This document shows, one piece after another, positions 4,264-62,835 of a stretch of DNA of 64,000 nt. The position numbers and the translations under genes are program-made. The stretch lies in NCBI GenBank assembly GCA_001822835.1, contig MHSS01000004.1, positions 7,186-71,185 on the forward strand. Direction: 5' to 3'. Numbering within the stretch: the stretch's first letter is position 1; each line of letters opens with the position of its first letter. The notes under the pieces were generated by a model. It did not search any database. It was given only the letters and a program-made list of their open reading frames with translations, and was not told the origin of the DNA. This DNA comes from Candidatus Terrybacteria bacterium RIFCSPHIGHO2_01_FULL_48_17 (GTDB lineage Bacteria > Patescibacteriota > Minisyncoccia > Terrybacterales > 2-01-FULL-58-14).

Positions 4264-4290
4264 ATACAGGGTACAGGGTACAGGGTACAG
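4264..4290. repeat. tandem heptamer (GGGTACA) x3.7 in the znuC 5' leader
   Basis: tacagggtacagggtacagggtacag read directly. Confidence 0.9.
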
Positions 4291-6872: not shown

Positions 6873-6956
6873 GCGCGGGTGGCGGAATTGGTACACGCGC
6901 AGGCTTGAGGGGCCTGTGGGCGAAAGCCCTTGGAGGTTCGAGTCCTCTCCCGCGCA
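6873..6956 (+). tRNA. tRNA-Leu (anticodon GAG) with long variable arm, no encoded CCA
   Basis: GCGCGGG...TGGCGGAATTGGTA D-arm typical of Leu, anticodon loop TTGAGGG, variable arm TGGGCGAAAGCCCTTGG, acceptor CCCGCGC. Confidence 0.75.
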
Positions 6957-6963
6957 CATCAAC

Positions 6964-12924: not shown

Positions 12925-13845
12925 CTACCCTTTGTTGCCTCGACTCAAGTATTTCCTATGCACTTCTTTAAGTTGTGGGTCGGTAACGTGGGTATAAACC
13001 TGCGTGGTTGTGATTGACGCATGCCCCAAAATCGCCTGAACAGAACGAAGGTCGGCGCCGTTTCGTAAAAGATCGGTAGCAAGGGAATGACGCATCGTAT
13101 GAGGGGTCACCTTTTTCCCTACGATTCCGGTTTTTACCGCATAGTGTTGTACCAAACGCTCTATGGAGCGTGGCGTTAAACGAGAGAAAAGATTCCCCTT
13201 CCCTCGTGGAATACGCACAAAAAGCGCCTCTTCCACTATATCTTTCCGCGCATCAAGCCATGTCTTCAACGCTTTTTTGGCGCGGTCAGATAAAAATACA
13301 ACCCGCACCTTTCCACCCTTCCCTCGCACAGAAAATTCTCCTTTCTTAAGATTTGCATCGCCGATATTAAGAGCGCATAGCTCTGAAACCCGTAAGCCGG
13401 TTGAAAAAAGGGTTTCCAAAATTGCCCGATCGCGCATAGCTCGCATACCAACACCCTCTGGCGCTTGAAGCAATCGCTCAAGCTCCTCTGGTTCCAAAAA
13501 CGAAACCTCGCGGTCTGGCTGTTTGGCAAGCTCAATCCGTTCAGCCGCCAACGCCTCAATCCCCTTATGGGCCAAATATTTAAGAAATGCGCGCAATGCA
13601 ATCAGATGATAGTTCTGTGTCTTTTGGTTAAGGGAAGGGCTCTGCCGATTCATCCATAAACGAAACTGTCGTACTCCCTCTTCCGTGAGATCCGAGAGAT
13701 CTAGTTTTTCCGCGTTGCCTTCTTTTGCAATAAATGCGAACAGGCGGCTCAAATAATGGTCGTAATTTTCAACGGTTTTGGGGGATCGTCCCCGCTCGAT
13801 CTCAATATACTCAAGAAATCGTTTTTTGGACTCATCAAGTTTCAT
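12925..13845 (-). CDS. xerC: tyrosine site-specific recombinase XerC/XerD family
   Basis: C-terminal HTMRHSLATDLL...LGHASITTTQVYTHV catalytic motifs (R..HxxR..Y). Confidence 0.85.
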   Translation of the reverse strand: MKLDESKKRFLEYIEIERGRSPKTVENYDHYLSRLFAFIAKEGNAEKLDLSDLTEEGVRQFRLWMNRQSPSLNQKTQNYHLIALRAFLKYLAHKGIEALAAERIELAKQPDREVSFLEPEELERLLQAPEGVGMRAMRDRAILETLFSTGLRVSELCALNIGDANLKKGEFSVRGKGGKVRVVFLSDRAKKALKTWLDARKDIVEEALFVRIPRGKGNLFSRLTPRSIERLVQHYAVKTGIVGKKVTPHTMRHSLATDLLRNGADLRSVQAILGHASITTTQVYTHVTDPQLKEVHRKYLSRGNKG

Positions 13846-22898: not shown

Positions 22899-23042
22899 CT
22901 CTATTGCCTCATTTCTTAAAGATCAATTACGATAAAAGTAATATACCACATTTGTACCAAAAAGCAATGCCTTAAATTCTTACCACAAATCCCCGTATAG
23001 ACGGGGCTTCTGTACCCTATACCCTAAACTCTGTTACCCGAA

Positions 23043-25252: not shown

Positions 25253-25340
25253 ATTTCTGCAAGTTTCTATAAATTTCGCGAAGCAAATTTCTTCACATAA
25301 GAAACACATCGAAGCACGTAGAAATTCATAGAAATTTGTT
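25253..25340. promoter_or_regulatory. AT-rich region with forward and inverted copies of the motif A(A/G)TTTCTAT(A/G)A(A/G)TTTC upstream of ksgA and the T4SS-like cluster
   Basis: aagtttctataaatttcgcgaagcaaat (25261-25288) and inverted copy about 25318-25340; about 85% identical to the element at 38644-38686. Confidence 0.5.
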
Positions 25341-30480: not shown

Positions 30481-31413
30481 ATGAAACGTACGCTTATTAT
30501 TACAATCGGGGTTATTGTGGTCGGAGGGCTTGCGCTTGTCGGCGCATATTCCCTATTTCGCGGACCGACACTGGGAGTGCTTGTAAACGTATTGCGTTTT
30601 TTGGGAACACCGATTGCGCAAGAAGACACGGGAGCAACGGTTGAAGGGCCATCGTTCACAGAAGACCGTGATAGCGACGGCTTATCCGATGCCAAAGAAG
30701 AAATTTACGGCACAAACTCCGACCTCCCAGACACGGACGGCGATAACTTCACCGATGGCGCTGAAGTACGCAAGGGTTTTGACCCGAAAGTCGCCGGGCA
30801 AGGAAAAATTGCGGACAATCCGGAACTGATGCGAAATCTCACTATTGCCTATTTTGAATGGGCAAGGGAAACGTCAAACATCGAAGATCCGCAGCTTGCC
30901 GAACAGGGTATTCAAACATTTTTGATCAGCCGCAAACAAGACCGGCTCATTTTACCAACGGTTGAAGATAACGAGATTGTACGCACCGACGCCTCCGGAC
31001 CAGATGCCGTTAAAGCATACCTCGACGCCTTTGCTCAAGTAACCCTTCCCCCCGTAACCGCCTCGTACCTGGACCTTGCGGAAGGAAGTTTACAAGAAGA
31101 AACGCAAACCATTATTGATACGGTGGTTTTGGGGATCGATGCAACCTACGAGCAAATTCGCCGTATCCCAACGCCCCAAGAGGCAATTGAAGTGCAACGA
31201 GGGCAGCTTGCAACCATGAAAGCATTAAAGGAGCTTTTTTTGGATCTTAAAAGCGTCAGGCGGGATCCGGTAAAACTGATACGCGACATTTCCTGGGGTA
31301 ACGAACTTGTACTCAAATCAGCGGATATTGAGAAAAAACGCCAGGAACTTGGCTTAATTACAAATCCGGCATTTCAAAATAGTAATCAGGGGACAGGGGA
31401 CAGTAATCAGTAA
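30481..31413 (+). CDS. N-terminal TM + TSP3-like Ca-binding motif protein (DRDSDGLSD...DTDGDNFTDGAE)
   Basis: motif read directly; C-terminus encoded by heptamer repeats (QGTGDSNQ). Confidence 0.55.
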   Translation: MKRTLIITIGVIVVGGLALVGAYSLFRGPTLGVLVNVLRFLGTPIAQEDTGATVEGPSFTEDRDSDGLSDAKEEIYGTNSDLPDTDGDNFTDGAEVRKGFDPKVAGQGKIADNPELMRNLTIAYFEWARETSNIEDPQLAEQGIQTFLISRKQDRLILPTVEDNEIVRTDASGPDAVKAYLDAFAQVTLPPVTASYLDLAEGSLQEETQTIIDTVVLGIDATYEQIRRIPTPQEAIEVQRGQLATMKALKELFLDLKSVRRDPVKLIRDISWGNELVLKSADIEKKRQELGLITNPAFQNSNQGTGDSNQ

Positions 31414-32147: not shown

Positions 32148-32159
32148 GACAAAAATTGC

Positions 32160-32300
32160 CCTAATTTCTAATTGCTCTAATTTGTCTAATCAAATCCCAA
32201 TGTCTAATACAAACAAGGTCAAAACATTTAAACATTAGAAATTCGGTTAAATTCTTTAGGTCAATTAGGTTAATTGGGTCAATTAGAAATTTAACATTCC
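32160..32300. promoter_or_regulatory. AT-rich intergenic region with three copies of AATTTCTAATT / AATTAGAAATT and direct repeat GTCAATTAG
   Basis: 32164-32174 forward, 32235-32246 and 32282-32293 reverse; the only sizeable gap inside the cluster. Confidence 0.5.
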
Positions 32301-32304
32301 TCTC

Positions 32305-36480: not shown

Positions 36481-37341
36481 ATGCCGGTTTTAACGCCTCA
36501 ACTATCTCCGCAACTTTTGGAAACCGCAGGGGACGAACGCACAGAAAAAGCCATCGCTTGGATCGCACAACGTTGGAAACTAAAAAGTGCTGACGATTTT
36601 GTGGCACAAGGCGCAAATTTTCAAGAAGCCCTCAGGCAATCACAAGTTTTTGTCCTTTCGCAAACAGTAGGAGAAGTGCTTGCGGGCAAGCTTCACCCCA
36701 ATTTTGTGGTAAAAACCCTTGAAGAACGCCTGAATATTCCACGCGACCGTGCACGCGACATTGCACATGACGTTTCGCGCGAAATTTTCTCGCGCGTACG
36801 AAGGGAGCTCATGGATTATTACCGGATAACGCCCGAACAGAAAGTTGCGCACCCCTCTCGGGACGCGGACCTACGCGGACAGGACGCAGACAAACACGGA
36901 CAACAGGAAGAGCCGATGAAGCCGTCAATGGCGGAGAGCATACAGGGTACAGGGTACAGGGCACAGGAATCAGAAGACGGGGGACAGGGAATAGAAATTG
37001 GGGAACCGGGATTGGCAATCAGTAATCAGAAATCAGAAATCGGGGATCGGGGGATGGAAGTTAAGGAAGAAGCACCGGCGCCGCCGCAAGAATCAGAATT
37101 AAAAGAGATCCCGCAACAACCACCTTTTGATGCGACGTTAGGCAAACCAAGTTTGGTAGAACAAGTGGAAGAAAAGTCGTTTCCCGAAAACATACAGCAA
37201 ACAGGGGACAGGGGACAGGAAACCGGGGCACAGGGGACGGGGGACGGGGGACAGGGGACAGTAAACGGAAAACCCGTTGCCGGACACGATAAACCGGAGC
37301 ACTTTGAGCCAGGACCGGGCCAGGTTATCGATCTAAGATGA
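36481..37341 (+). CDS. hypothetical protein whose C-terminal half is encoded by heptamer tandem repeats (QGTG-rich)
   Basis: repeats at 36941-37055 and 37199-37263. Confidence 0.5.
   Translation: MPVLTPQLSPQLLETAGDERTEKAIAWIAQRWKLKSADDFVAQGANFQEALRQSQVFVLSQTVGEVLAGKLHPNFVVKTLEERLNIPRDRARDIAHDVSREIFSRVRRELMDYYRITPEQKVAHPSRDADLRGQDADKHGQQEEPMKPSMAESIQGTGYRAQESEDGGQGIEIGEPGLAISNQKSEIGDRGMEVKEEAPAPPQESELKEIPQQPPFDATLGKPSLVEQVEEKSFPENIQQTGDRGQETGAQGTGDGGQGTVNGKPVAGHDKPEHFEPGPGQVIDLR
36941..37055. repeat. about 17 consecutive degenerate heptamers (ACAGGGT/ACAGGGC/TCAGAAA/TCGGGGA ...)
   Basis: strict 7-nt periodicity read directly. Confidence 0.9.
37199..37263. repeat. (GGGGACA)-type heptamer array, about 9 units
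   Basis: aacaggggacaggggacaggaaaccggggcacaggggacgggggacgggggacaggggaca. Confidence 0.9.
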
Positions 37342-37354
37342 GTTGAAAATTAAA

Positions 37355-37405
37355 GGTTAAGAGTTAAGAGTTAAATTCTTAATTCTCGATTTTAGATTTT
37401 TAATT
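37355..37405. repeat. AT-rich heptamer-periodic array (GTTAAGA GTTAAGA GTTAAAT TCTTAAT ...) in an intergenic spacer
   Basis: read directly. Confidence 0.8.
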
Positions 37406-37407
37406 TA

Positions 37408-37860
37408 TTGAGTGTGCAAGTCAAAGTTCCCAAATTCATTGATATTGAAGATAAAGTTATTTTTGGCTTAACCTGGCGCCAATTTTTATTCTTGGGCGTA
37501 GGTGGCGGAGTCGGCATTGTTGCGTTCTATGTTTTAGTACAACCCTTAGGAACAGCAATCGGTGTTGTTTCTATGACCATTGGTGCAATCTTTGCGTTAG
37601 TCAAAATAAACAACCGCCCCATGCATATATTTGTATATTCATTGTGGAACTATTTTTTTAACCCACGCCAATACACATGGAAAAAAGAAGCGACCGCGGC
37701 AAGGACAGCGAAAGTGACCAAAATCACAAAAAAGGAGACGCCGGCAACTCCCAAAACCATAACTCCGGAACGACTAAAACGCCTTTCGGTATTGCTAGAT
37801 ATCCAAGGACAAAAACAATCTGATGCCAATGTCAAAGTCCAAAGCTCAAATGCCAAATAA
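37408..37860 (+). CDS. PrgI/VirB3-like small membrane protein
   Basis: N-terminal VPKFIDIEDKVIFGLTWRQFLFLGVGGGV followed by two TM helices, about 150 aa, located before the VirB4 genes. Confidence 0.55.
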   Translation: MSVQVKVPKFIDIEDKVIFGLTWRQFLFLGVGGGVGIVAFYVLVQPLGTAIGVVSMTIGAIFALVKINNRPMHIFVYSLWNYFFNPRQYTWKKEATAARTAKVTKITKKETPATPKTITPERLKRLSVLLDIQGQKQSDANVKVQSSNAK

Positions 37861-37960
37861 AACCCAAAATCCCAAGCTCAAATACCAAAACCCGTGCGTT
37901 TTTATGCTTTGGATTTTCGTCATTGATTTGTCATTTGGATTTTGAAATTTGGATTTAGTA
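37836..37960. repeat. about 125-bp imperfect palindromic element with 7-nt periodicity (CCAAA-rich arm / cgtgcg centre / TTTGG-rich arm); copy 1
   Basis: shares AAATCCCAA and CATTTGGATTT signatures with the copy at 45836-45960. Confidence 0.6.
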
Positions 37961-37964
37961 GCCG

Positions 37965-38633
37965 TTGCTTATGCCTCAAGTATCCACCCAATCGTTTCTT
38001 CAGTTTGAGTTCGTCCGTGAAGGCGCGATTGTCCTTCGGGGCGGAGGACTGCGTGCAATTTTAATGGTGTCGGGATCAAATTTCGGCCTGAAATCCCAGG
38101 AAGAGCAAGAGGCAACGGTATATGCATTTCAGAATTTCCTCAATTCTCTTGATTTTGACATCCAAATAACCATACATTCGCGTAAAATTGATATCGAACC
38201 CTATCTTGCAACGCTTGGAGAACGTCTTGAACGGGCAGAGACCGATCTTTTGCGCGTGCAGACGCGCGAATATATCGAGTTTATCCGTTCTTTTGTTGAA
38301 GGCGCAAACATTATGGCAAAGCAGTTTTTTGTCATAGTGCCATACGACCCGGTAACCGGCACCAAAGAAAGGGGAGTTGTAGCAAAAGCAAGGGCACTGC
38401 TTCCTGTTTCAAAAAAAGAAACGGTTTTAGAGGAAGAAAATTTTGAAACAAATCGCAAACAGCTTATGGAGCGCGTTGAGTTTACGGTTCAGGGCCTGCA
38501 TAAAACCGGTCTTCGCTCAACCGCGCTCTCAACGGAAGAGATTATAGAACTTCTGTGGAAGCTTTATAATCCGGAAAAGGAAGCAAAGGGACAAATGCCA
38601 AATTTTGAAGAACTTGGTGCGGCTTCGGACTAA
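37965..38633 (+). CDS. VirB4/TrbE N-terminal domain (CagE_TrbE_VirB-like) as a separate ORF
   Basis: LRGGGLRAILMVSGSNFGLKSQEEQEATVYAFQNFLNSLDFDIQITIHSRKIDIEPYL matches the VirB4 N-domain pattern; in-frame stop, then 78-nt gap. Confidence 0.6.
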   Translation: MLMPQVSTQSFLQFEFVREGAIVLRGGGLRAILMVSGSNFGLKSQEEQEATVYAFQNFLNSLDFDIQITIHSRKIDIEPYLATLGERLERAETDLLRVQTREYIEFIRSFVEGANIMAKQFFVIVPYDPVTGTKERGVVAKARALLPVSKKETVLEEENFETNRKQLMERVEFTVQGLHKTGLRSTALSTEEIIELLWKLYNPEKEAKGQMPNFEELGAASD

Positions 38634-38643
38634 CCTGCACAAT

Positions 38644-38686
38644 AAGTTTCTATGAGTTTCGCCGAGCAAATATCTATAAATTTCTG
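38644..38686. promoter_or_regulatory. copy of the AAGTTTCTATGAGTTTCGC..GAGCAAAT element in the gap between the two VirB4 ORFs
   Basis: about 27/32 identity to 25261-25292. Confidence 0.5.
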
Positions 38687-38711
38687 AAACTAATGGATTG
38701 AAATTGATTGT

Positions 38712-40493
38712 ATGAACCCCCCTAAAGCTCAACTTTCTCCCGAAGAACTCTTTGAACGAGGCGTTGCAACCTTGAAGGATTTGCTTGCGCCATCAGCCCT
38801 GGAGTTTTCCCAAAACACCATAAAAATAGGCGAGCGCTATACGCGCATTCTTTTTGCGTTTTCCTACCCCCGCTACCTTACAACCAACTGGCTTTCACCT
38901 ATTATTAACCTTGATCAAACCATTGACGTAACCATGTTTGTTCAGCCGGTAGAGACCGCGGAGATGCTAAAAAAAATGGAAAAGAAGGTCGCCGAGGTTG
39001 AATCGCAAATGATGGAACGAGAAGAAAAAGGGCGGGTGCGCGACCCGATGCTGGAGACCGCCTATAAGGATCTTGAGGATTTGCGCGATAAATTACAGCA
39101 GGCCCGTGATAGAATGTTTCAGTTTTCGCTTTATATCACTATCTGGGGAAGATCCGAAGAAGAGCTTGCTTCCATTGAAAATACAATTCGCTCCCAACTT
39201 GAAGGACGGCTTGTATATATGAAGCCGGCAATTTTTCAACAAGAAGAGGCCCTTAAATCCGTGCTGCCGTACGCGGATAATTGGCTTAAGATATCAACAA
39301 ATTTGGACGCGGAAACCATTGCAACGGCCTTCCCGTTTATTTCGCTGGATCTCACCATGAACCACGGGGTGCTTTACGGCATTAACCGGCACAATAATTC
39401 CCTCGTTATTTTTGACCGCTTCTCGTTACCCAACGCAAATTCCGTAATGTTTGGAATTTCCGGAGGGGGAAAATCCTATGCAGCAAAACTTGAGGTGCTG
39501 CGCGCGCTTATGTTTGGCACCGATGTTATAGTGGTTGACCCGGAGAACGAATATGAGCATTTGGCCCGTGCAGCTGGCGGAACTTTCGCCCATATCTCTC
39601 TTACCGCAAAACAGCATATCAACCCTTTCGATTTGCCGCCCATAACGGAAGACGAAAGCCCTAAAGAAATTTTTAGATCCCATCTCCTCGAAGTCGTGGG
39701 GCTACTGAAAGTAATGCTGGGCAAAAATATCACCCCGGATGAGGAAGCGATTGTTGACCGTGCGGTTACGGAAACCTATGCCTCACGCAATATCACATCG
39801 GAAAGCGATTTCTCGATCATCACAGCCCCGCTTTTTTCCGATTTCCTCTCGGTGTTAGGAGATCTTGAGGGAGGAAGAGTTCTTGCGCAACGGCTTGAAA
39901 AATTTACAAAGGGTGCGTATGCGGGTTTCTTGGATCAACCGACGAACGTGGATATTAACCGCCGCTTTATTGTATTTAGCATCCGGGATCTTGAAGAAGA
40001 GTTGCGACCGATTGCGATGTACATTATTTTACATTTTATCTGGAATCGTATACGCGCATCTTTAAAAAAACGGCTTTTGGTTATTGATGAAGCGTGGTGG
40101 CTTATGCAAAAAGAGGATGGCGCCGCGTTCTTGTTTTCCATCGCCAAGCGGGCTCGAAAATATTTCCTTGGCATCGCAACCATCACCCAAGACGTAGCGG
40201 ATTTTATGGGATCCCCCTACGGCCAGCCCATTGTCGCAAACTCATCGCTTCAATTGCTCTTTAAACAGTCGCCCGCAACTATTGATGCCGTGCAGAAAAC
40301 GTTTAACCTTACGGACGAAGAGAGGTATCTGTTGCTGGAAAGCGCGGTAGGAGACGCATTGTTTTTTGCCGGTCTTAAACATGTGGCTATACAGGTTGTG
40401 GCTTCGTACACAGAAGATCAGATTATTACATCGGATCCTTCCCAGCTTTTGGCAATAAAGCGCGCACGAGAAAACCTTACACAAAAACAGTGA
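38712..40493 (+). CDS. VirB4-family conjugative/T4SS ATPase, C-terminal NTPase part
   Basis: Walker A GISGGGKS, Walker B LLVIDEAWWL, ITQDVADF motif; 593 aa. Confidence 0.85.
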   Translation: MNPPKAQLSPEELFERGVATLKDLLAPSALEFSQNTIKIGERYTRILFAFSYPRYLTTNWLSPIINLDQTIDVTMFVQPVETAEMLKKMEKKVAEVESQMMEREEKGRVRDPMLETAYKDLEDLRDKLQQARDRMFQFSLYITIWGRSEEELASIENTIRSQLEGRLVYMKPAIFQQEEALKSVLPYADNWLKISTNLDAETIATAFPFISLDLTMNHGVLYGINRHNNSLVIFDRFSLPNANSVMFGISGGGKSYAAKLEVLRALMFGTDVIVVDPENEYEHLARAAGGTFAHISLTAKQHINPFDLPPITEDESPKEIFRSHLLEVVGLLKVMLGKNITPDEEAIVDRAVTETYASRNITSESDFSIITAPLFSDFLSVLGDLEGGRVLAQRLEKFTKGAYAGFLDQPTNVDINRRFIVFSIRDLEEELRPIAMYIILHFIWNRIRASLKKRLLVIDEAWWLMQKEDGAAFLFSIAKRARKYFLGIATITQDVADFMGSPYGQPIVANSSLQLLFKQSPATIDAVQKTFNLTDEERYLLLESAVGDALFFAGLKHVAIQVVASYTEDQIITSDPSQLLAIKRARENLTQKQ

Positions 40494-40497
40494 CACT

Positions 40498-40824
40498 ATG
40501 AACGAAGAGGAGTATACTGGAAACGAAGAGGAGGAAGAGCTTACACAACGCCAAGCGCTCGCTCAAGAGCGCGGCGACGCACAAACAGCAGGGCACTATT
40601 TAAAACAACAAGCGCAACAACAGGCAGTGCGCGCTGGAATGCAAATGGCAAAACAAGTGGTAAGACGTGTTGTGGTACAAGCGGCAATTCGAGGCATCAT
40701 CATACTGCTTACCAATCCTGTCGCGCTAGTTATAGAAGGCGTTATTTTGCTTATCATTATCGTGGTTCTTATCGTAATATACGGCGGATTCTATATCCAA
40801 GAAGGGGCCTCCCAAATTTTATGA
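40498..40824 (+). CDS. small membrane protein with acidic N-terminus and a 35-aa hydrophobic hairpin
   Basis: starts 5 nt after the VirB4 stop; overlaps the next gene by 4 nt. Confidence 0.45.
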   Translation: MNEEEYTGNEEEEELTQRQALAQERGDAQTAGHYLKQQAQQQAVRAGMQMAKQVVRRVVVQAAIRGIIILLTNPVALVIEGVILLIIIVVLIVIYGGFYIQEGASQIL

Positions 40825-41906
40825 AGAGGAAAATCTCCTATAGTTATCACAGGCTACTGCTTTGGTGTATAGGCGCTTTTATGGCAATGGCGATTCTTCC
40901 CTTTGTCGCCAACGCTATGTTGCCTGCAGACGGCGGTCTTGGTGGCGTGGGAGCCCCGGGTCAAAGTCAAAACATCAGCAGCCCTCGTCCGAAACTCGAA
41001 GAGGGTCTTGAGCTTCCTCTCCCCGGCGCCCCTGATTTTTCAACCGGCGATCCTGCTGACATTATCGGCTGGTTCTTTTTCTTTACGATGGGCATAGTCG
41101 GGATCCTGGCGCTTATTATGTTGGTTGTCGGGGGAGTGCAATTCACCGCTTCTGCCATTGATCCCGAAGCACGAACCCAAGCACGTAATCGGATACGAGC
41201 AGCCCTTACCGGCCTTTTGCTTGCACTCGTTTCATTTGTGCTTCTCTATACGCTCAATCCAGATCTTGTCAATTTGCGTAGCCCCTCGCTTCCGTGTGTT
41301 TCGTGTGCTTGCCTTGATAGCACGCGAGCGGCTCCCGGACTGAATGTAAATAATTGCGTACAATCAGATCAAGCGGCCTATAGTACGGGCATCCGTGAAA
41401 CAGGAGCGTTTAATACCGACCCCTGTTTGACCTCTGCGATCGCAAGTATTGATCCTAATAGATTAAAGCTCTTGGACGACGCCGGACGCACAGCCGAATA
41501 CGCGAGGGCGTCGGCTGCAAAGGGATGCGGATTTGTTTTTATTGCGGACGATGACAAAACCAATACCACGTGTGCGGCCTATTGCATGCAGAAAAAGGCA
41601 GATAGTTGTGACTATCGCAACGAGCCGGGGTGTAGTTGTAAATCAATCTATGAGCAAACAAAAAACTGGGCATGCAAAACCATGGGTCTCAATACCGTAT
41701 GCAATGAAGAAAAAGACAGCCCCGATGATTCCCAACTTTTCGGATGCCCGCTCCTTGGTTCGTATGTCGAATACGCGACAAATCTCGGCGGAGATTACGA
41801 TGCCTGTAAGTGCGCATCTACAGTAACATGTGCGGATGACGAGGTTATCTCGCTCGTGAAGGATACATTTAAGGAATTGCCGGGCTGGGCGGGTGGCTGC
41901 AACTAA
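40821..41906 (+). CDS. VirB2/TrbC-like pilin module (signal peptide + 2 TM) fused to a C-terminal domain of about 210 aa with 20 Cys
   Basis: cleavable signal ...VANA, hydrophobic pair IIGWFFFFTMGIVGILALIMLVVGG / LTGLLLALVSFVLLY separated by a charged loop. Confidence 0.4.
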   Translation: MKRKISYSYHRLLLWCIGAFMAMAILPFVANAMLPADGGLGGVGAPGQSQNISSPRPKLEEGLELPLPGAPDFSTGDPADIIGWFFFFTMGIVGILALIMLVVGGVQFTASAIDPEARTQARNRIRAALTGLLLALVSFVLLYTLNPDLVNLRSPSLPCVSCACLDSTRAAPGLNVNNCVQSDQAAYSTGIRETGAFNTDPCLTSAIASIDPNRLKLLDDAGRTAEYARASAAKGCGFVFIADDDKTNTTCAAYCMQKKADSCDYRNEPGCSCKSIYEQTKNWACKTMGLNTVCNEEKDSPDDSQLFGCPLLGSYVEYATNLGGDYDACKCASTVTCADDEVISLVKDTFKELPGWAGGCN

Positions 41907-43189
41907 GGAATCGTAGCCAGCACGACCACAAAGAGAACGGCTAAGTCGTTTTTAAGAATTGGGGTATCGATAAGGCCGTGGAGAATAATCGCAGCTAGAG
42001 CTGCGAAGGGAATAGGGAATAGGGAATAGGGAATAGACGAGGAATGGCGAAGCGCTAGGAGCGCTTTTTTTGTTATGACAAAAAGGAGCCATAAAAAACC
42101 GGAGAGTCCCAAAAGGCCTGCGGACAACCAGATAGCAAGAAAAATGTTATGTGGTTGCGGCACTGCCCACTCAAGGTATGGAGGAAATTGCGGCTGCACG
42201 CTAAGGAAATAATACTGAAATGCCCCGGGACCAATACCAAAAAACCAATGGTCTTTTAAAATTTCAAGTGCGGCTTGCCATACCATAATGCGTGAAGCAA
42301 AAGAGGAACGAGCGCCGGTATCGAAAACAATAAAGGCCGCAGTTGTTGCGACAACCACCAAGAAAAGTGCGGCAAAAACTGCTTTAAGGGGAATCTTGCG
42401 TGTAAGCAATAAAAGCGTAAGCGCGCCAAGCGCGGCGCTTATGATGCCTCCCGATGATTGTGTAAACAAAAGGGCTATAGCGATAACGCCAAACGCTATA
42501 CCAAAACCAAAGCGTATTTTTTTAGTTGTCTCAAAGAGGAACAATCCAAGCGCAACGGCAAGCGCTGGGGCCAATACCATCGCAAGATGGTTTGGCGACA
42601 AAAAAAATCCGCGCAAGCGCATATCATACGTTACAAAATCGCCACCAAACAGGGCGCCAATAAGCGCACCGCTTGCTTGAAGCGCAGCCCCCACAACAAC
42701 TGCCGCCAAAAACAGTTTTTTGTTTCGGACATCTTGCTGCACAAACGCATACGCCGCAACGCCGAATAAAACAGGTAGGATAAAAATGCTTTTTAACTCT
42801 CCCAGTGCCCGCAACTGCAACCAAAAACCAGCCGTAATCGTAGCGAAGGCGGCGCCCAAAATAATTAAACTAGCCGGGGCTATCCACCATGGCAGGGAAA
42901 GCTCAATTTTTTTGCGCAACCACAAAGCGAAAAACCCCGCAAGGGCCCCCATCACCAAAAGATCAAGAGCGTTTGTACGCAGCGCGCCTTCGCGGATACG
43001 GATAAGATAAAGCGGCGTTAATAAAATAACCACCACAACGGCATCGCGCGGCCTCAACAAAGTAAGCACAAGGAACAACCCCGCTCCTGCTGCAACCACT
43101 ATAAGCTCAAGCGGGGTGGTGGCGATTATTTCCATAAAAAGAGAGTTGTGCCGTGCCAGCCGCAAAACCAGCCAGCACAACAAATACAA
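41903..43189 (-). CDS. O-antigen ligase/Wzy-like polytopic membrane protein; contains heptamer-encoded segment SSIPYSLFPIPF (42007-42037)
   Basis: 10+ TM helices; GGGAATA x3 on the opposite strand. Confidence 0.55.
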   Translation of the reverse strand: MYLLCWLVLRLARHNSLFMEIIATTPLELIVVAAGAGLFLVLTLLRPRDAVVVVILLTPLYLIRIREGALRTNALDLLVMGALAGFFALWLRKKIELSLPWWIAPASLIILGAAFATITAGFWLQLRALGELKSIFILPVLFGVAAYAFVQQDVRNKKLFLAAVVVGAALQASGALIGALFGGDFVTYDMRLRGFFLSPNHLAMVLAPALAVALGLFLFETTKKIRFGFGIAFGVIAIALLFTQSSGGIISAALGALTLLLLTRKIPLKAVFAALFLVVVATTAAFIVFDTGARSSFASRIMVWQAALEILKDHWFFGIGPGAFQYYFLSVQPQFPPYLEWAVPQPHNIFLAIWLSAGLLGLSGFLWLLFVITKKALLALRHSSSIPYSLFPIPFAALAAIILHGLIDTPILKNDLAVLFVVVLATIP

Positions 43190-44420
43190 ACAACACCTGT
43201 GGCGAGTAGAGCGTTGTTTCTACTAAAGATTGGGCGGCAAACACGGCGATTGATGCGGCAAAGCCATGTGCCAAAAGCGTTTTTTGTTTAACAAACGCCA
43301 AAAAAGCAGCGTAAAGCATACCGACCCAGAACATAAGGCCAAATATGCCAAGCTCGGATGCCATCTCAAGATAGGTATTGTGCGCATTGGTAGGAATACG
43401 AAAAGCAAGTTGGGGCCCAAGAGTCGCCGCAAGCCCTCCGAGCCCAACGCCCAATAACGGATGTTTAAAGAAAATGGTTGTGGTATCCTGCCACAACAAA
43501 AGCCGCGCGGCAAACGACCCTTCGTTCACATCGAAACTCGCGGCGAAACGATCCCGAAAGGGTGCAATAAACAAAAACAGAACAAAAAGGAGAAGCGCTA
43601 CAGAAAATACCATAGCGCGCATGTGACCAGAAAAATTCCGCCATCGTAACACCGCAAACACGAAAAATCCGACAAGCACCGCCGCGTACCCGCCGCGGGA
43701 AAACGATAGGATAATTGCAGCCACCATTAGTATCATTGCAAAAATTGCGAAGGGGCGCGCGGTGCGCGACATGCTGCCTAAAAGACCGGCGGTGCAAAAA
43801 AAAGCTATGCCCAAAAAAAGCGAAAGCGTGTGAGGATCGGAAAAAGGGAAAAAGGCGCGCAGTATCGGGCCTCCCACATCAACAAAAAAACTTGGAAATT
43901 GAAAAACGGCTTCTGCGGTGGTGTTTCCCCACAAAAAAGGGGCTACGTTTTTTATTGCAGCCACCACCGTTTCCCCTCCAAACAAAAACCCAAGCCCTGC
44001 TTGAAAAACCGCAAGGAGCGCCGCCATAAAACCCCCAAACGCAATACCCGCAGCAAAAAAACGTGCGCGCGCCGCCCAAACCGCCGCAAGCCATAAAACC
44101 GGGAAAAATCCTGCTAAAAAAATAAATTTTCGAACTGCAAATGCCGGTGCTTCCGCCCAAAATAGCGACAATCCAGCAACTGCCAAAAATCCCGTAGCTG
44201 TCCAAAATACGGGGTGTACGGGCACGGGAAACGTCCGTTTCCATAAGAAAAGAACCGCGGTGCATCCATAAATCCCCACAACAAGGATTCGAATAGTTGC
44301 AAGATCCCATGAGCCGATATTGGCTGCCGGCAATATAGGGACAGTCGCCAAAAGCGCAAAAAAGGAAAACTGCAGAAATTTCATATTTTTAGCGCACTGC
44401 ATGCGCTCGCAAAAGATCAA
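43107..44420 (-). CDS. O-antigen ligase/Wzy-like polytopic membrane protein
   Basis: topology; overlaps the neighbour by 83 nt, so start may be downstream. Confidence 0.55.
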   Translation of the reverse strand: MIFCERMQCAKNMKFLQFSFFALLATVPILPAANIGSWDLATIRILVVGIYGCTAVLFLWKRTFPVPVHPVFWTATGFLAVAGLSLFWAEAPAFAVRKFIFLAGFFPVLWLAAVWAARARFFAAGIAFGGFMAALLAVFQAGLGFLFGGETVVAAIKNVAPFLWGNTTAEAVFQFPSFFVDVGGPILRAFFPFSDPHTLSLFLGIAFFCTAGLLGSMSRTARPFAIFAMILMVAAIILSFSRGGYAAVLVGFFVFAVLRWRNFSGHMRAMVFSVALLLFVLFLFIAPFRDRFAASFDVNEGSFAARLLLWQDTTTIFFKHPLLGVGLGGLAATLGPQLAFRIPTNAHNTYLEMASELGIFGLMFWVGMLYAAFLAFVKQKTLLAHGFAASIAVFAAQSLVETTLYSPQVLFVFVVLAGFAAGTAQLSFYGNNRHHPA

Positions 44421-45858
44421 TGTGCTCCTGTGTTATGCCCCGAAACATGCGAAGCGAAAGAATGTAGAGGGCTGGACAGATAATGAGATAGGGGATTAAC
44501 GCGAAAATGCCAAGTTTGTGGCTAATGTCGCCCAAAAACATAAATGGAATCGCCATAACGATCGATGCTGCCAAAGCATACAGAACCCGCATCGTGCGTA
44601 TATATCCGCCAGAGGCCCTCGCGCAAATACACATAAGACCAAACGTTACTACAAATTCTGTAAGGACCGTACTCGTTGCGGCGGCAACATACGAAAAACG
44701 AGGAATAAATATCAGATTTAAACCGAAATTAAGCACCATGCCGATTCCATATGCCCATACCGCCCTTCGTTGCTGGCCAAGCGCAATAACCGCACTTCCA
44801 AAAACATTTCCCAAAAAAATGAGCGCTGCCGCAACCAAGAGAATGCGCAGGGGGGACACCGCCTGCAAAAAATCTTTCCCGCCAAGCGCCTCCACCAAAA
44901 GGGGTGCCAAGAAAAACCCGCCAATCATCAAGGGCATTGCCGCAAACATAATGACTTCAAACAAACGCTGGAGCGTTACTCGAAATGCTTTTAAGTTTTC
45001 TACTGCCTCCAAAGAAAGCCGGGGCATAATAAGTCCCACAAACATTGCAGGAAAGAAAATAAGATACTCAAGCATTTTATAAGCAAGGTTATAAAGGCCT
45101 ACGTCTTCCGGCGGACGCAAAAAAGAAAGCATAACCGTATCCATCCGAAAATAAACAAGGGTAAACAAAAGCCCTATGGCAATAGGGAGGGACTCTCGAA
45201 TAATTCCTTTGGCAACGGGCAATGAAAAAGAGAGCCGGAAGGGAAGATATTGACGCACCGCCCTATAATGCACGGCAAATTGCAGAAACGAGCTTGCCAC
45301 TAACGCAACCAAAAAAAGAACTACCGAGCCCCCCAGTACCGCAATAATGACCGATAAACCAAGCTGTAACACCCTTCCCGCAATTTCGGCTAAGGCAGCC
45401 CAATACGCCTTGAGCCGTTTTTGCAAAGGCGCCATGGAAAGCTGCACTAATGACTGTAGCCAAAACGCAACCGCAGCTAACGGGATACCTATACGTGAAG
45501 CAGGGGATAGGGGAACAAAAACAAGCGCCGCGACAACGCCGATACTCAAAATTACACTAAGCGCCGCAAGGCGAATACTAAACGTTACTGAAAAAAGAGA
45601 CCGCTCGTTTGCGCCAGGACGCGAACTCTCGCGCAAAACATATTGGTAAAGGCCGAGGTCGGCAGCAATACTAAAAAGATACAAAAAAGCTAAAATAGCC
45701 GAATACTCGCCAAAAAACCCAGGCCCCAATGAACGGGTAACGATTCCAATAGAAACTAATGCTAAAACGCCGCCAAAAAGTCGTGCGGCGGCGGATATCA
45801 ACGTATTTGCGGCAACGGTCTGAAACATCATTAAAAAAATCCAAATAACAAAATCCAA
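44389..45858 (-). CDS. polysaccharide biosynthesis flippase (Wzx / MOP superfamily)
   Basis: 489 aa, about 14 TM. Confidence 0.6.
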   Translation of the reverse strand: MDFVIWIFLMMFQTVAANTLISAAARLFGGVLALVSIGIVTRSLGPGFFGEYSAILAFLYLFSIAADLGLYQYVLRESSRPGANERSLFSVTFSIRLAALSVILSIGVVAALVFVPLSPASRIGIPLAAVAFWLQSLVQLSMAPLQKRLKAYWAALAEIAGRVLQLGLSVIIAVLGGSVVLFLVALVASSFLQFAVHYRAVRQYLPFRLSFSLPVAKGIIRESLPIAIGLLFTLVYFRMDTVMLSFLRPPEDVGLYNLAYKMLEYLIFFPAMFVGLIMPRLSLEAVENLKAFRVTLQRLFEVIMFAAMPLMIGGFFLAPLLVEALGGKDFLQAVSPLRILLVAAALIFLGNVFGSAVIALGQQRRAVWAYGIGMVLNFGLNLIFIPRFSYVAAATSTVLTEFVVTFGLMCICARASGGYIRTMRVLYALAASIVMAIPFMFLGDISHKLGIFALIPYLIICPALYILSLRMFRGITQEHIDLLRAHAVR

Positions 45859-45960
45859 ATATCAAATAAAATCCCAAACCCCAATGCCAAAAACCGAACG
45901 TGCGGGTCTTGGACATTACGTCGTTGGACATTTATTTGGCATTTGGATTTGTCTTCATGG
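45836..45960. repeat. about 125-bp imperfect palindromic heptamer-periodic element; copy 2
   Basis: aaatccaaataacaaaatccaaatatcaaataaaatccc ... cgtgcgg ... ggacatttatttggcatttggatttg. Confidence 0.6.
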
Positions 45961-46419
45961 GTATGGTCGTATCACAACCCTCCGGTCGCGCCCTTCGCCT
46001 TGTGATTCCGTGACTACGTCCCCTCGGGCTGCAAGCTCTAAGTGTATAAGACGTCGTTCAAAGGCAGACATTGGTTCAAAAATGTATTGGCTTTTAGAAT
46101 AGCGTACCTCGTCAGCCGCGTCCCGCGCGCGTTGCCGCACAATTTTAGCTCGCTCGGCCCGGTAACCATTGACGTCAAGCGTTAACCGAGGCGCTTGTTC
46201 TCCGGCATCCCGTAATACAATGCGCCGCAACATATACTCAAGCGCAGCCAATCCTTGCCCCTGTTCGCCAATAAGAGCGCCCGCGCCTTCGGATGCTTGA
46301 ATCTTTACTTCAATGCCGCCGGTTGGCCCTTCGCTGATATCGGCAATCGCTTCTGGAAAGCCAAGGAAAGACAAAAGGCGCTCTGTTGTTTCCTTTGTTT
46401 TACTAAGAAGTTGTTCCAT
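45955..46419 (-). CDS. jag: Jag/KhpB-like KH + R3H RNA-binding protein
   Basis: KH GxxG-like IGEQGQGLAAL; R3H FEPMSAFERRLIHLELA; sits downstream of yidC. Confidence 0.8.
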   Translation of the reverse strand: MEQLLSKTKETTERLLSFLGFPEAIADISEGPTGGIEVKIQASEGAGALIGEQGQGLAALEYMLRRIVLRDAGEQAPRLTLDVNGYRAERAKIVRQRARDAADEVRYSKSQYIFEPMSAFERRLIHLELAARGDVVTESQGEGRDRRVVIRPYP

Positions 46420-47606: not shown

Positions 47607-47837
47607 ATGTTCCTATTTGATGCCTCGTTTTTCATCTTTGCGCGTAGTTGCGCGTTCAGGCATAACGGGCTACACTGTAGCATGCTCCGGGAAATGAAGC
47701 AATAAAATGTTTCCCACTGGTTTTCCCCAGCGTCTCCACAGTTCCGGTTGTTTTCTGATTTTACAACAACGTCTCCGTTGATATACTAATCGATGTTTTT
47801 CCTTAATACAAAATAGCGCTCTTGTATAGTTCAACGT

Positions 47838-49232: not shown

Positions 49233-49435
49233 AGAAGCCGTGTGGATTAACGGGATAAATAAAACACAGATAAAAATAACGCCTTTCCCTTCAACAATTC
49301 TTCCCTCTGTTTTCCACACATAATTCCCATGGTTTTTTATTTTGTTTTCAACAATTTTTTCCTAAATTACATAATTTTCCACACCCCTAATAACAATAAC
49401 AAATAAAATAGTATTTATTATATTTTATTATAGTC
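49233..49435. promoter_or_regulatory. probable oriC segment: three DnaA-box-like 9-mers (TGTGGATTA, TTTTCCACA x2) plus AT-rich unwinding region
   Basis: boxes at 49241-49249, 49310-49318, 49375-49383; AT-run 49386-49432. Confidence 0.55.
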
Positions 49436-56194: not shown

Positions 56195-56198
56195 AGGA

Positions 56199-56248
56199 CA
56201 GGGATTGGGGGGTTAGGGAATAGGGAACAGAAATCGGGGAATGGGATT
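56199..56248. repeat. GGGAATA/GGGAACA/GGGGAAT heptamer cluster in the yebC leader
   Basis: ggattggggggttagggaatagggaacagaaatcggggaatggg. Confidence 0.8.
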
Positions 56249-58485: not shown

Positions 58486-58523
58486 TGGTTAGCAAATAGG
58501 GATTAGAGAATAGAGAATAGGGG

Positions 58524-58745: not shown

Positions 58746-58785
58746 ATTCTATAAGGGAATAGGGAGTAGGGAATAGGGAATAAAA

Positions 58786-62340: not shown

Positions 62341-62835
62341 ATGGTGACGAAAAACGATAACGAATTGGTTGCGCTTGGAAAAAAGACAGGAGAAGCCCTG
62401 CGCCAACAAAAAAACGGTCCCCTGGTTCTTGCTTTGGTAGGGGAGCTGGGTTCCGGCAAAACCACATTTGTGCGCGGGCTTGCGAAGGGCCTTGGTATTC
62501 GTGCGCGCATTACCTCGCCAACGTTTGTGCTGGCGAAACGGTATCGTGTGCCCGCGATAAGAAACAAGAAACAAGAAACAAGAAACAAACAAGATACAAG
62601 ATACAAAAAACAAGAAACAAACCGGCAATACTTTTGGCACATGGACGCGTATCGGCTAAAAGATGGGCGTGACCTTGCGGGCATTGATTTTGAGGAAATA
62701 GTAAGCGACTCCGCAAATATTGTTGCCATTGAATGGGCAAACAAAATAAAACGCGCGATTCCGAAAGGCGCGCGCTGGATTCGTTTTTTCCATTTACCCG
62801 GCAATCGCCGCAAAATAATTTTTTCGATGGAATAA
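62341..62835 (+). CDS. tsaE: tRNA t6A37 biosynthesis ATPase TsaE, with about 20-aa insertion encoded by AGAAACA heptamer repeats
   Basis: GELGSGKTTFVRGL P-loop, ITSPTF, HMDAYRL. Confidence 0.8.
   Translation: MVTKNDNELVALGKKTGEALRQQKNGPLVLALVGELGSGKTTFVRGLAKGLGIRARITSPTFVLAKRYRVPAIRNKKQETRNKQDTRYKKQETNRQYFWHMDAYRLKDGRDLAGIDFEEIVSDSANIVAIEWANKIKRAIPKGARWIRFFHLPGNRRKIIFSME
62558..62623. repeat. (AGAAACA)n / (AGATACA)n heptamer array inside tsaE
   Basis: gataagaaacaagaaacaagaaacaagaaacaaacaagatacaagatacaaaaaacaagaaacaaacc. Confidence 0.9.

Follow-up and report, generated by a model that had tools for sequence, protein, structure and literature searches.

Two members of a dispersed family of intergenic palindromes with heptad-array arms in a Candidatus Terrybacteria genome

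Two intergenic palindromes (E1 and E2) in the 64-kb stretch of Candidatus Terrybacteria DNA analysed here (the window) belong to a sequence family that is dispersed in unrelated hosts, occupies junctions that are empty or differently filled in related genomes and, in the case of E1, is subject to allelic replacement within one population. With a probability of roughly 0.55, we consider both to be copies of a non-autonomous dispersed repeat of the ERIC/REP/MITE kind, with arms composed of heptad arrays. CPR (Patescibacteria) genomes are small, dense and usually thought to be poor in repeats; nevertheless, a conserved palindrome of about 130 bp was present here at many junctions, crossing large phylogenetic and GC distances and being swapped between strains with 99.99% identity elsewhere. 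No description of the family was found in the catalogues and literature searched. The features of both loci are given in Table 1.

Table 1. Elements, flanking genes and polymorphic segment, in window coordinates.
Feature	Position	Strand	Basis
PrgI-family (VirB3-like) T4SS gene	37429..37860	+	Pfam PF12666, translation
Polymorphic segment enclosing E1, 158 nt	37813..37970		Population contig comparison
E1, full-length family copy	37820..37959	+ (family-profile orientation)	nhmmer, inverted repeats, period, fold
E1, A/C-rich arm	~37823-37892		
E1, centre CCCGTGCG	~37890-37897		
E1, T/G-rich arm	~37898-37957		
TraC-like gene, N-terminal part of split VirB4	37971..38633	+	PF26593 on identical protein
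Wzx-type polysaccharide flippase gene	44389..45831	-	Pfam PF01943/PF13440; gene calls in L001-L010
E2, further family copy, more diverged	45834..45950	- (profile orientation)	nhmmer, fold
E2, A-rich arm (+ strand)	45834-45895		
E2, centre GAACGTGCGGG (+ strand)	45896-45906		
E2, T/G-rich arm (+ strand)	45907-45952		
jag/KhpB (R3H domain) gene	45955..46419	-	Pfam PF01424, sequence

E1 is laid out as ATGCCAATGTCAAAGTCCAAAGCTCAAATGCCAAATAAAACCCAAAATCCCAAGCTCAAATACCAAAA-CCCGTGCG-TTTTTATGCTTTGGATTTTCGTCATTGATTTGTCATTTGGATTTTGAAATTTGGATTT, and the layout of E2, arranged around GAACGTGCGGG, matches it. Both are imperfect palindromes, in which an A/C-rich arm of YCAAA heptads is followed by the short centre CGTGCG and a T/G-rich arm of TTTGR heptads; the arms are complementary to each other at 76–88% and their base autocorrelation reaches maxima at lags 7, 14 and 21. 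An initial sequence-only reading, which had claimed the same architecture for both regions, arms that are approximate reverse complements and a location at gene ends, was borne out on all of these points, with both copies spanning the distance from stop to start codon of co-directional genes. The two signatures that it had reported as shared were likewise found in both elements, AAATCCCAA at 37867 and 45869 and CATTTGGATTT at 37932 and 45940. The best-scoring alignment was obtained between E1(+) and E2(-), which have CAAATGCCAAATAAA and ATTTGGATTTTGNNATTTGGATTT in common, and stretches dense in CCAA/TTGG occurred in the 64 kb exclusively at these two sites. As expected of MITEs, the elements are small and non-coding and the inverted repeat of their arms reaches the element ends; a conserved ORF is absent, the PrgI stop codon being located elsewhere in the orthologue.

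For a test of homology, 29 copies on other metagenome contigs, but neither E1 nor E2, were used to build an nhmmer profile. In the window this profile matched solely 37820-37959 (100 bits, E = 2.4e-30) and 45834-45950 (58 bits, E = 1.8e-17), giving a copy count of two, and no significant match was returned from the reversed window used as control. Since a profile derived from unrelated contigs recognised E1 and E2 only, their likeness reflects homology rather than A/T composition, and on this sequence evidence we regard both as true copies of one sequence-conserved family. E1 was nearer to copies from other hosts than to E2, a finding as compatible with several old lineages, or with constraint on the sequence, as with recent transposition.

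The family was sampled from metagenome contigs with one exact 20-base pattern, and its composition is therefore biased. The scan yielded at least 120 loci; among those listed, 58 held full elements (≥ 45 bits). Together with the profile result, this excludes the possibility, entertained in the sequence-only reading, that just two copies exist and resemble each other through composition. The matches listed comprised 72 non-redundant copies, several per contig and beside unrelated genes, i.e. at many non-orthologous sites. Several loci contained 2–4 copies within a few kb, and local densities reached 3 copies in 11 kb and up to 3–4 copies per 6–14 kb (L309, L335, L271). Forty-four of these copies lay between co-directional genes, nine between convergent and four between divergent ones; the median distance to the flanking ORFs was ~0, and orientation relative to the genes was the same in 19 and opposite in 25 cases. 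Elements measured 110–160 bp (mean 137), each arm consisting of 7–8 heptads with an invariant core, YCAAA in the 5' arm and TTTGR in the 3' arm. The alignment further demonstrated that the series of non-identical heptads keeps its order across hosts, well beyond the search pattern, with E-values as low as 1e-33 for CCAAA-family copies in unrelated hosts. These hosts were Paceibacteria, Andersenbacteria-like CPR (L309) and one GC-rich contig that did not resemble CPR (L332, 63% GC), for whose protein the closest among the few named relatives were labelled Verrucomicrobiae. The GC content of host contigs ranged from 31 to 63%, and the element remained AT-rich even in the latter. Housekeeping genes, such as LigA, GatA, TilS and RpoA, flanked the copies, and the C-terminus of LigA, like that of PrgI, was read into an element. 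Copies in L335, L298 and L285 had their nearest relatives within their own genomes, a 40-nt loop was common to the two copies of L151, and nested GC hairpins followed by T runs were present in some copies (L141, L269, L309).

These data bear on the possibility that neither a family nor mobility is involved, i.e. that the palindromes arose on the spot by 7-nt slippage and fold-back copying and are alike through low-complexity convergence. Tandem arrays of 7-nt units are unusually abundant in the source genome (11 of 28 arrays, ~170 per Mb vs. ~37 per Mb in other Paceibacteria loci), some hairpins of other genomes consist of near-perfect tandem heptads (L221, L155, L179), and heptad gain or loss distinguishes E1 from its orthologue, all of which would agree with slippage. 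The profile search, however, already contradicts this possibility in the case of E1 and E2, and the ordered series of different heptads recurring in unrelated hosts, the AT-richness kept in the 63% GC contig and the loop shared by the L151 copies speak against it as well, so we rate this explanation as very improbable. Local slippage can account for the growth and decay of arms, not for the family. It should be added that the 7-nt arrays of the source genome are built from many different units; some of them run in frame within genes, and elsewhere in the window single-arm heptad arrays lie directly upstream of start codons. The abundance of such arrays, the conservation across distant hosts and the polymorphism of E1 had all been missed by the sequence-only reading.

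In the E1 locus, the last ~16 codons of the PrgI gene (...QSDANVKVQSSNAK*) with the stop codon are located within the left arm, and the start codon of the TraC-like gene, whose protein has 1149 homologues in Paceibacteria and other Parcubacteria, follows 11 nt past the end of the profile match. Most contigs from the same population carried a 77-nt hairpin in place of the 158-nt segment with E1, composed of GGGATAG/GAGATAA heptads, the centre GATGCGTTTT and then CCCTATT/CCCTATA, with the PrgI protein ending in ...QAHQKGIGDKR*. This alternative was found in L001-L003, L131-L134, L136-L138 and L140, and the E1 allele in L139 and the window. The flanks of the two alleles were > 99.9% identical, with only 2–3 mismatches over ~20 kb, and the closest SNPs were situated 7 nt before and 6 nt after the allele junction; because they hug the junction, the allele change resembles homologous recombination rather than transposition. 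A relative with 80% identity possesses an orthologous E1 that differs by an indel of heptad length and by a GC hairpin nested inside it, and in which the PrgI stop codon precedes the arm.

E2 was identical in ten independent assemblies. At its locus, in the direction of transcription, the jag/KhpB stop codon is 6 nt upstream of the element and the wzx ATG directly follows the T-rich arm (GGATTTTTTTAATGATG), the profile orientation coinciding with the direction of the flanking genes. The jag-wzx gap of a relative with 60% identity (L146) comprised 16 nt and lacked the element. Similarly, the LigA-GatC gap was occupied by a family element in L309 and by another kind of heptad palindrome in L353 (95% amino acid identity), and measured 44 nt in L354 (86% amino acid identity); empty and filled sites were too diverged for the junctions to be defined. 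The TraC-VirB4 gap was ≤ 30 nt in 47 of 65 Paceibacteria. Overall, the same junctions in related genomes were either empty (5–44 nt) or occupied by another 7-periodic palindrome; the comparison of syntenic loci thus revealed element-less as well as differently filled sites, and the element is gained, lost or replaced at gene junctions much faster than the flanking genes change.

The position of both copies, from stop to start codon between co-directional genes, is also what one would anticipate from a functional intercistronic RNA hairpin acting as partial terminator or attenuator, barrier to 3'-exonucleases, RNase III site or translational coupling device; in the last variant, the downstream start would be hidden until the upstream ribosome arrives. 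The predicted folds are indeed more stable than those of dinucleotide shuffles (z from -2.0 to -4.0), with -36 kcal/mol (z = -2.55) for E1 and -45.1 kcal/mol (z = -4.0) for E2 on the - strand. Furthermore, the arm rich in A invariably comes first and the one rich in T second, as in bidirectional terminators, a polarity prevailing by 26 to 6 among 7-periodic intergenic hairpins, and the GC hairpins with T runs nested within some copies point in the same direction. Against this, orientation relative to genes was random, stability of sense and antisense folds was equal (p = 0.24), RNAalifold returned no consensus structure, covariation was marginal and barely above that of shuffles, most copies left the variable positions of each heptad unpaired in the consensus hairpin, and most related genomes lack the element at the same junctions. 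A GC-rich stem with a U tract was found neither at E1 nor at E2; terminator scans detected no intrinsic terminator at either, and only 15% of element ends were followed by at least four T in 6 nt. No canonical promoter signal was detected. The Rfam search of the window at gathering threshold returned three tRNAs only and no family match for the elements, the best weak matches of E1 being generic plant miRNA hairpins (E ≥ 0.45). Taken together, the lack of an Rfam match and of canonical terminator or promoter signals, the unbiased orientation and the slight covariation leave an RNA function unsupported, and the roles as terminator or RNA stability element suggested in the sequence-only reading could not be sustained; we hold the functional hairpin to be unlikely.

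A further explanation, to which we give somewhat less credence still, takes the elements for DNA arrays of protein-binding sites, in which direct and then inverted heptads would allow cooperative binding of a small oligomeric protein similar to omega; each heptad 'flavour' would then have a protein of its own. Such a role is in line with the strict period of 7, the 5-nt core conserved in every heptad, the variation of the other 2 nt with no compensating change in the opposite arm, and the single-arm arrays right before start codons. The sequence is, however, unrelated to the omega heptads, WATCACW; no ribbon-helix-helix (RHH) or similar gene was seen among window ORFs of at least ~70 aa, heptad arrays occur also in frame within genes, and copies amid varied housekeeping genes of very different hosts, at convergent ends too, do not resemble an operator. 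Binding of omega, a ribbon-helix-helix protein of plasmid pSM19035, to arrays of 7-bp repeats serving as operators and centromere is documented (PMC9499535). Family elements share with these arrays the contiguous 7-bp units in direct and inverted order, whereas omega arrays are plasmid-borne and few and the family has many chromosomal copies of a different sequence.

Considering E1 and E2 as dispersed repeats, their copying would be performed by an enzyme recognising either the hairpin form or the heptad arrays, the latter by analogy with transposases that recognise repeated subterminal sites. The upstream gene can take its final codons and its stop from a family element, and nested GC-rich hairpins are accommodated. 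In operon transcripts the element may fold back and bring the upstream stop codon beside the downstream start codon, so that insertions would be tolerated between coupled genes; effects on mRNA stability or read-through would then be incidental rather than selected for. More speculatively, and with a low likelihood in our estimation, the elements could represent the palindromic, mobile form of a 7-nt-specific process shaping non-coding DNA in CPR and some other bacteria. This process might be a new mobile element with ends made of heptad binding-site arrays for an oligomeric recombinase, flavours being its specificities, or else an enzyme-driven addition of heptads with fold-back copying at gene junctions. 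Either form would give rise to unrelated flavours at the same junctions in close relatives and to single-arm arrays before start codons, as well as to in-frame heptad arrays in essential genes and to one flavour conserved across phyla.

If the dispersed-repeat reading holds, the family could be used to track variation between strains, would be one cause of altered protein C-termini, and would explain some breaks in metagenome assemblies, as some population contigs terminate inside E1. Moreover, the strict 7-nt periodicity would offer a handle for finding the responsible enzyme or binding protein, and annotators should be warned, since ORFs run into heptad arrays.

REP/BIME sequences are extragenic palindromes at high density at gene ends, thought to be non-autonomous (PMC2817692, PMC3733652, PMC8266576), and one end of a REP carries a conserved GTAG or CGTC tetranucleotide (PMC3733652). 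The family is similarly extragenic, palindromic and located at gene ends; REPs, in contrast, are 20–40 bp long, tagged and linked to a RAYT (TnpA-REP) gene. REP identity was rejected on the length of 110–160 bp and on the consensus ends, AAATCCAAA.../...TTTGGATTT, which carry no GTAG/CGTC tag; the GTAG that follows E1 (37958-37961) is not a conserved trait of the family. Among the ~60 window ORFs there was no RAYT gene or Y1 transposase domain, nor any transposase or other candidate mobilising gene. The flanks of aligned copies showed no common target-site duplication, and none is definable because the element ends are fuzzy and A/T-rich. Thus, the earlier label 'MITE- or REP-like' stands as regards a dispersed palindromic intergenic repeat; its REP part fails, and membership among MITEs is unproven. 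Correia/NEMIS elements of Neisseria and Rickettsia palindromic elements are small, non-coding and dispersed, with inverted-repeat ends, and the Rickettsia elements can extend into reading frames, as family copies do at the C-termini of PrgI and LigA. No target-site duplication and, in the loci covered, no parent insertion sequence or autonomous element with the same ends was found for the family. Unlike in those elements, its inverted repeat covers the whole element and is internally periodic.

Borg elements carry fast-evolving A-rich tandem repeats, both intergenic and in frame within genes (PMC9879509), resembling the other heptad arrays of the window; the Borg repeats are in direct orientation, vary widely in unit length and lie on archaeal extrachromosomal elements, whereas those described here have units of specifically 7 nt and are often palindromic. 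TIGR arrays (TIGR-Tas) consist of ~36-nt tandem units with two spacers and box C/D-like motifs adjoining a Tas gene (PMC12045711). An assignment to them was dismissed given the period of 7, the single palindrome per site and no Tas-like gene nearby.

With many copies per genome, either orientation and tight gene gaps, the family behaves like ERIC/IRU, REP/BIME and Correia-type MITEs. ERIC/IRU is an imperfect, non-coding palindrome of ~125–127 bp that lies in transcribed intergenic DNA in both orientations; its copy number varies, internal insertions produce longer variants, and how it spreads is unknown, traits that it has in common with the family (~110–160 bp). The ERIC consensus is GC-richer and probably unrelated in sequence to the heptad family, which is therefore not classed as ERIC. 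The likeness is one of behaviour only: unlike ERIC, the family has arms built from successive 7-nt units that share a conserved core, inhabits uncultured bacteria, CPR among them, that differ widely in GC content, and turns over fast at each junction.

The window comes from the chromosome of a CPR bacterium of Parcubacteria/Paceibacteria type and Rifle aquifer origin. Among its genes are dnaA-dnaN, yidC and jag, together with a type IV secretion cluster and genes for the cell envelope; one of its proteins recurs unchanged on contig MHSY01000008.1 of GCA_001822935.1 and on many metagenome contigs. Only two places in the 64 kb were dense in CCAA or TTGG, and these are the two copies of a heptad-armed palindromic repeat, E1 and E2. 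Their common architecture was as described in the sequence-only reading: an arm of A/C-rich units (TGCCAAA, GTCCAAA, GCTCAAA among others), a short centre containing CGTGCG, and a T/G-rich arm with units such as CATTTGG and ATTTTGA. Autocorrelation within the arms peaked at lags 7, 14 and 21. The arms, noted from sequence as approximate reverse complements, were 76-88% complementary, and the long hairpin then envisaged was recovered by RNA folding from either strand, imperfect, at -36 to -45 kcal/mol (z -2.0 to -4.0). The best alignment was that of E1(+) with E2(-), each read in the direction of its flanking genes, and both CAAATGCCAAATAAA and ATTTGGATTTTGNNATTTGGATTT were common to the two by alignment and direct reading. 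The location of both copies at gene ends was borne out, as the stop and the last 16 codons of PrgI lie within the left arm of E1, and E2 begins 6 nt past the jag stop and finishes directly before the wzx ATG. Coordinates of these and other features are collected in the table.

Table. Repeat copies and other features of the window (contig named where the feature lies elsewhere)
Feature	Position	Strand	Setting and description
E1	37820-37959	+	between the PrgI-family gene and the TraC-like gene (N-terminal part of split VirB4)
E2	45834-45950	-	between jag/KhpB and the Wzx flippase gene
Sole other weak family-profile match (E=0.14)	32148-32304		157-nt gap upstream of 714-aa T4SS-cluster ORF; imperfect palindrome, CTAAT/ATTAG-type units, period ~9
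Split VirB4	37971-38633; 38712-40493		TraC-like N-terminal gene (220 aa); P-loop ATPase gene (593 aa); split conserved in fetched Paceibacteria loci
Small 7-periodic palindrome	37342-37407		286-aa ORF/PrgI junction, one upstream of E1; GTTAAGA x2.7, then TCTTAAT-type units
Heptad hairpin, same junction, 60%-identity relative	L146 1191-1272		GGAATCT/AGATTCY
Two heptad-plus-hairpin stretches	2690-2763 and 22960-23042 (-)		past two stop codons; GGGATAG/GGGTATA-type heptads (flavour of the alternative E1 allele), AGAAG, then GC-rich hairpin; both with junction 'gcttctgt' (+ strand)
Third junction at E1 site	L135 1-95		unrelated upstream sequence joined to last 26 nt of alternative E1 allele and TraC-like gene
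In-frame heptads in tsaE (62341-62835 +)	62559-62620	+	~nine AAGAAAC units encoding roughly IRNKKQETRNKQDTRYKKQETNRQ, between conserved protein parts; Pfam match split in two
Purine-rich heptad arrays (ACAGGGG, TACAGGG, AATCAGA, AGGGAAT)	16801-16833; 36941-37268; 42007-42036; 31387-31403		inside or at 3' end of ORFs: PNPase, 286-aa ORF before PrgI, Wzy-type C-terminus, TSP3-repeat ORF
Single-arm heptad arrays	4265-4290; 56195-56246; 58495-58520; 58754-58782		directly upstream of ATG of - strand genes; pyrimidine-rich on sense strand (GTACCCT, CCCTATT, TTCCCTA), no Shine-Dalgarno-like sequence between array and ATG
Period-~10 stretches	25253-25335; 38634-38711		intergenic, one of them in the TraC-VirB4 gap; mutually similar (AAGTTTCTAT.A.TTTCGC.GAGCAAAT)
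Period-~10 stretch, 80%-identity relative	L141 2094-2187		conserved in TraC-VirB4 gap
GC-rich short palindrome CCTGCCTGCCGG..CAGGCAGG	L141 1358; L269 2405; L222 1758, 2619; L341 4376; L170 18074		unrelated contigs; variants at L309 ~3600 and L353 ~8190
Apparent replication origin	47684-47837; 49233-49435		dnaA-flanking gaps; two TTTTCCACA boxes and long AT-rich runs in dnaA-dnaN gap; cumulative GC skew minimum near 50 kb
LAGLIDADG-domain ORF	6223-6870		stops 2 nt ahead of tRNA-Leu (6873-6957); not adjoining E1/E2
XerC/D-type tyrosine recombinase gene	12925-13845		not adjoining E1/E2

Scanning of public metagenome contigs with the exact 20-base word TTTGGATTTTNNNATTTGGATTT returned at least 120 loci, a sample ascertained through this one word only. 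The complete architecture was present in about half of the 120 loci listed, conservation extended well beyond the searched word, and the consensus reads AATGTCAAATGTCAAAGCTCAAATGTCAAATCAAATCCAAAGTTCAAATGTCAAAAA, a variable centre and TTTTGGATTTTGACATTCATTTGACATTTGGATTTTGACATTTGGATTT. An nhmmer profile made from 29 of these copies, with E1 and E2 left out, had just two significant matches in the window, E1 at 100 bits (E=2.4e-30) and E2 at 58 bits (E=1.8e-17), and none in the reversed window, so that the similarity is neither confined to two copies nor explained by A/T composition alone. Elements scoring at least 45 bits were found in 58 of the 120 loci listed, some contigs carrying 2-4 copies inside 6-14 kb, next to ordinary housekeeping genes (LigA, GatA, TilS, RpoA and others). 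Host-contig GC among the loci listed ranged from 0.31 to 0.63, and on L332, a contig of 63% GC, the element was still AT-rich. Taxonomic labels of such contigs are indirect: the host of contig L309 appears Andersenbacteria-like, and the inositol monophosphatase of L332 was closest to proteins without an organism name and, among the few named, to Verrucomicrobiae, a weak label since other close proteins bear different ones. No description of the family was found among the open-access papers searched, the literal sequence included.

Placement and orientation were examined in 72 non-redundant copies, of which 44 lay between co-directional genes, 9 between convergent and 4 between divergent genes, the other 15 being at contig ends. 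The ORFs behind these figures were crudely called as the longest ones, so that distances are approximate; the median to the flanking ORFs was ~0, as copies take up the whole gap and in many cases run into the ends of ORFs. The asymmetric profile ran in the direction of the genes in 19 cases and opposite in 25, and RNA stability did not differ between sense and antisense (p=0.24). No target-site duplications were resolved in the flanks of the family copies.

Turnover was evident at orthologous junctions. Ten independent assemblies from the population agreed exactly in E2; the 60%-identity relative lacks it, and its jag-wzx spacing is 16 nt. The E1 site was polymorphic: contigs 99.9-99.99% identical to the window over ~20 kb have 37813-37970 exchanged for a hairpin of 77 nt, of the same plan with other heptads (GGGATAGGAGATAAGAGATAAGGGGA, TGCGTTTT, then CCCTATTCCCTATACCCCATACCCTAACCCC). 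This alternative allele was present in 8 of the 10 contigs looked up, one had E1 and was broken within it, and one had a third junction, which is either another arrangement of the site or an assembly chimera through a repeated arm. The SNPs closest to the replaced segment are 7 nt away on its left and 6 nt on its right, which suggests a short tract imported by homologous recombination. No homologues of the alternative allele (GGGATAG/CCCTAT) were detected in the 3.5 Mb searched. In the 80%-identity relative, E1 has an orthologue shorter by one heptad, and the site has therefore long been occupied; a GC hairpin, CCTGCCTGCC...GGCAGGCAGG, is nested in the right arm of that orthologue. PrgI of this relative stops ahead of the arm, hence the arm-encoded PrgI tail is incidental. 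PrgI and a possible mini-ORF after jag (MKTNPNAK*) have the ending NAK* in common; coding of the arms or of a mini-ORF was not conserved in this relative and was rejected.

Similar dynamics were seen between LigA and GatC, where L309 carries a family element, L353 (LigA 95% identical) a different A-rich/T-rich heptad palindrome, and L354 (LigA 86% identical) 44 nt with no element; the two neighbouring gaps differ in every one of these genomes. In L309 the LigA stop and last two codons are replaced by the element. The TraC-VirB4 gap was at most 30 nt in 47 of 65 Paceibacteria (median 5), and long gaps usually contain a hairpin, 7-periodic in 8 of 10 such cases.

The 1.39 Mb surveyed for hairpins consisted of the window, two loci from the 60%-identity relative and 80 Paceibacteria loci surrounding the TraC-like gene. 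Period 7 dominated intergenic hairpins (39 of 102, and 27 of the 40 strongly periodic ones) vs 7 of 106 in coding DNA. The heptads vary by genome (ACGTAGT, TACGAAT, CTAGAAG, ATACGAA, AGAGACC, GGAATCT and others), some being shared by several genomes or by several junctions of one genome, and the A- or purine-rich arm came first in 26 of the 7-periodic intergenic hairpins and second in 6. Tandem arrays of period 7 made up 11 of 28 in the window (~170 per Mb vs ~37 per Mb in other Paceibacteria loci) and were located past stop codons, directly ahead of start codons and in frame within genes, e.g. TsaE. ORFs appear to read into the purine-rich arrays. The period-~10 stretches seem to form another small family of repeats, and the GC-rich palindrome, often nested in the T-rich arm or centre of heptad elements, could be a REP-like mini-element in its own right or a terminator module.

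Roles in RNA had been put forward from sequence, and these were not supported. RNAalifold on 36 aligned copies gave no consensus structure. With the hairpin of the consensus sequence imposed on the family alignment, 78.6% of cells pair vs 52-59% with the partner slid by one column, and the invariant CAAA and TTTG cores pair with each other; in over half of the copies the 2-3 variable positions of each heptad stay unpaired, and covariation barely exceeds that of shuffled alignments (13 of 500 reach it). Because the cores pair, the variable positions mostly do not and covariation is marginal, the element resembles a pair of inverted arrays in which a conserved 5-nt core recurs every 7 nt, rather than a stem kept by compensatory change. 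The profile strand folds 2.6 kcal/mol better than its complement (p=0.002), probably an artefact of picking copies through an exact T/G-rich pattern; RNA-level selection was rejected, as orientation showed no bias and sense and antisense did not differ. Rfam returned no match to a known RNA family. A terminator role had also been suggested; no canonical terminator was present at E1 or E2, and T runs were not in excess at element ends across the family. Outward hybrid promoters (TTGACA in the arm with a -10 in the flank) numbered 3 vs 5.5 expected in the family, and promoter-like sites at E1 and E2 did not exceed chance.

Other identities were likewise rejected. Blastn of the consensus against phage and plasmid collections was blank, but matches could have been masked there by the low-complexity filter; 2.9 million viral contigs gave only 3 short matches, and the first loose pattern used on them, TTTGGATTTN{3,9}TTTGGATTT, was swamped by unrelated tandem repeats and serves as a rough control only. 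E2 lies 1.9 kb from dnaA, and an origin role was considered; the gaps on either side of dnaA have TTTTCCACA boxes and lack the family motif. Core motifs of integron attC sites and TIGR arrays were absent on reading of the elements.

Taken together, homologous copies occur in unrelated hosts, at many non-orthologous sites and in either orientation, close relatives have an empty orthologous junction and different elements at one junction, and allelic replacement, nested GC hairpins and overlap with gene ends are all observed. The heptad family thus fits a non-autonomous dispersed palindromic repeat. We infer a copy-making route for its elements; fold-back of the transcript would keep stop and start codons adjacent, which could render insertion harmless in operons. 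Unusually, the family keeps strictly to a 7-nt period, its cores conserved and compensating changes absent, which points to a protein reading repeated sites or to unit-specific generation of the repeats; no such protein was found among the ~60 window ORFs scanned. From the initial proposal of a MITE- or REP-like mobile element, the dispersed palindromic repeat with such behaviour stands, and membership of either class is not supported: closest in behaviour are ERIC/IRU, REP/BIME and bacterial MITEs, and the family is assigned to none of them.
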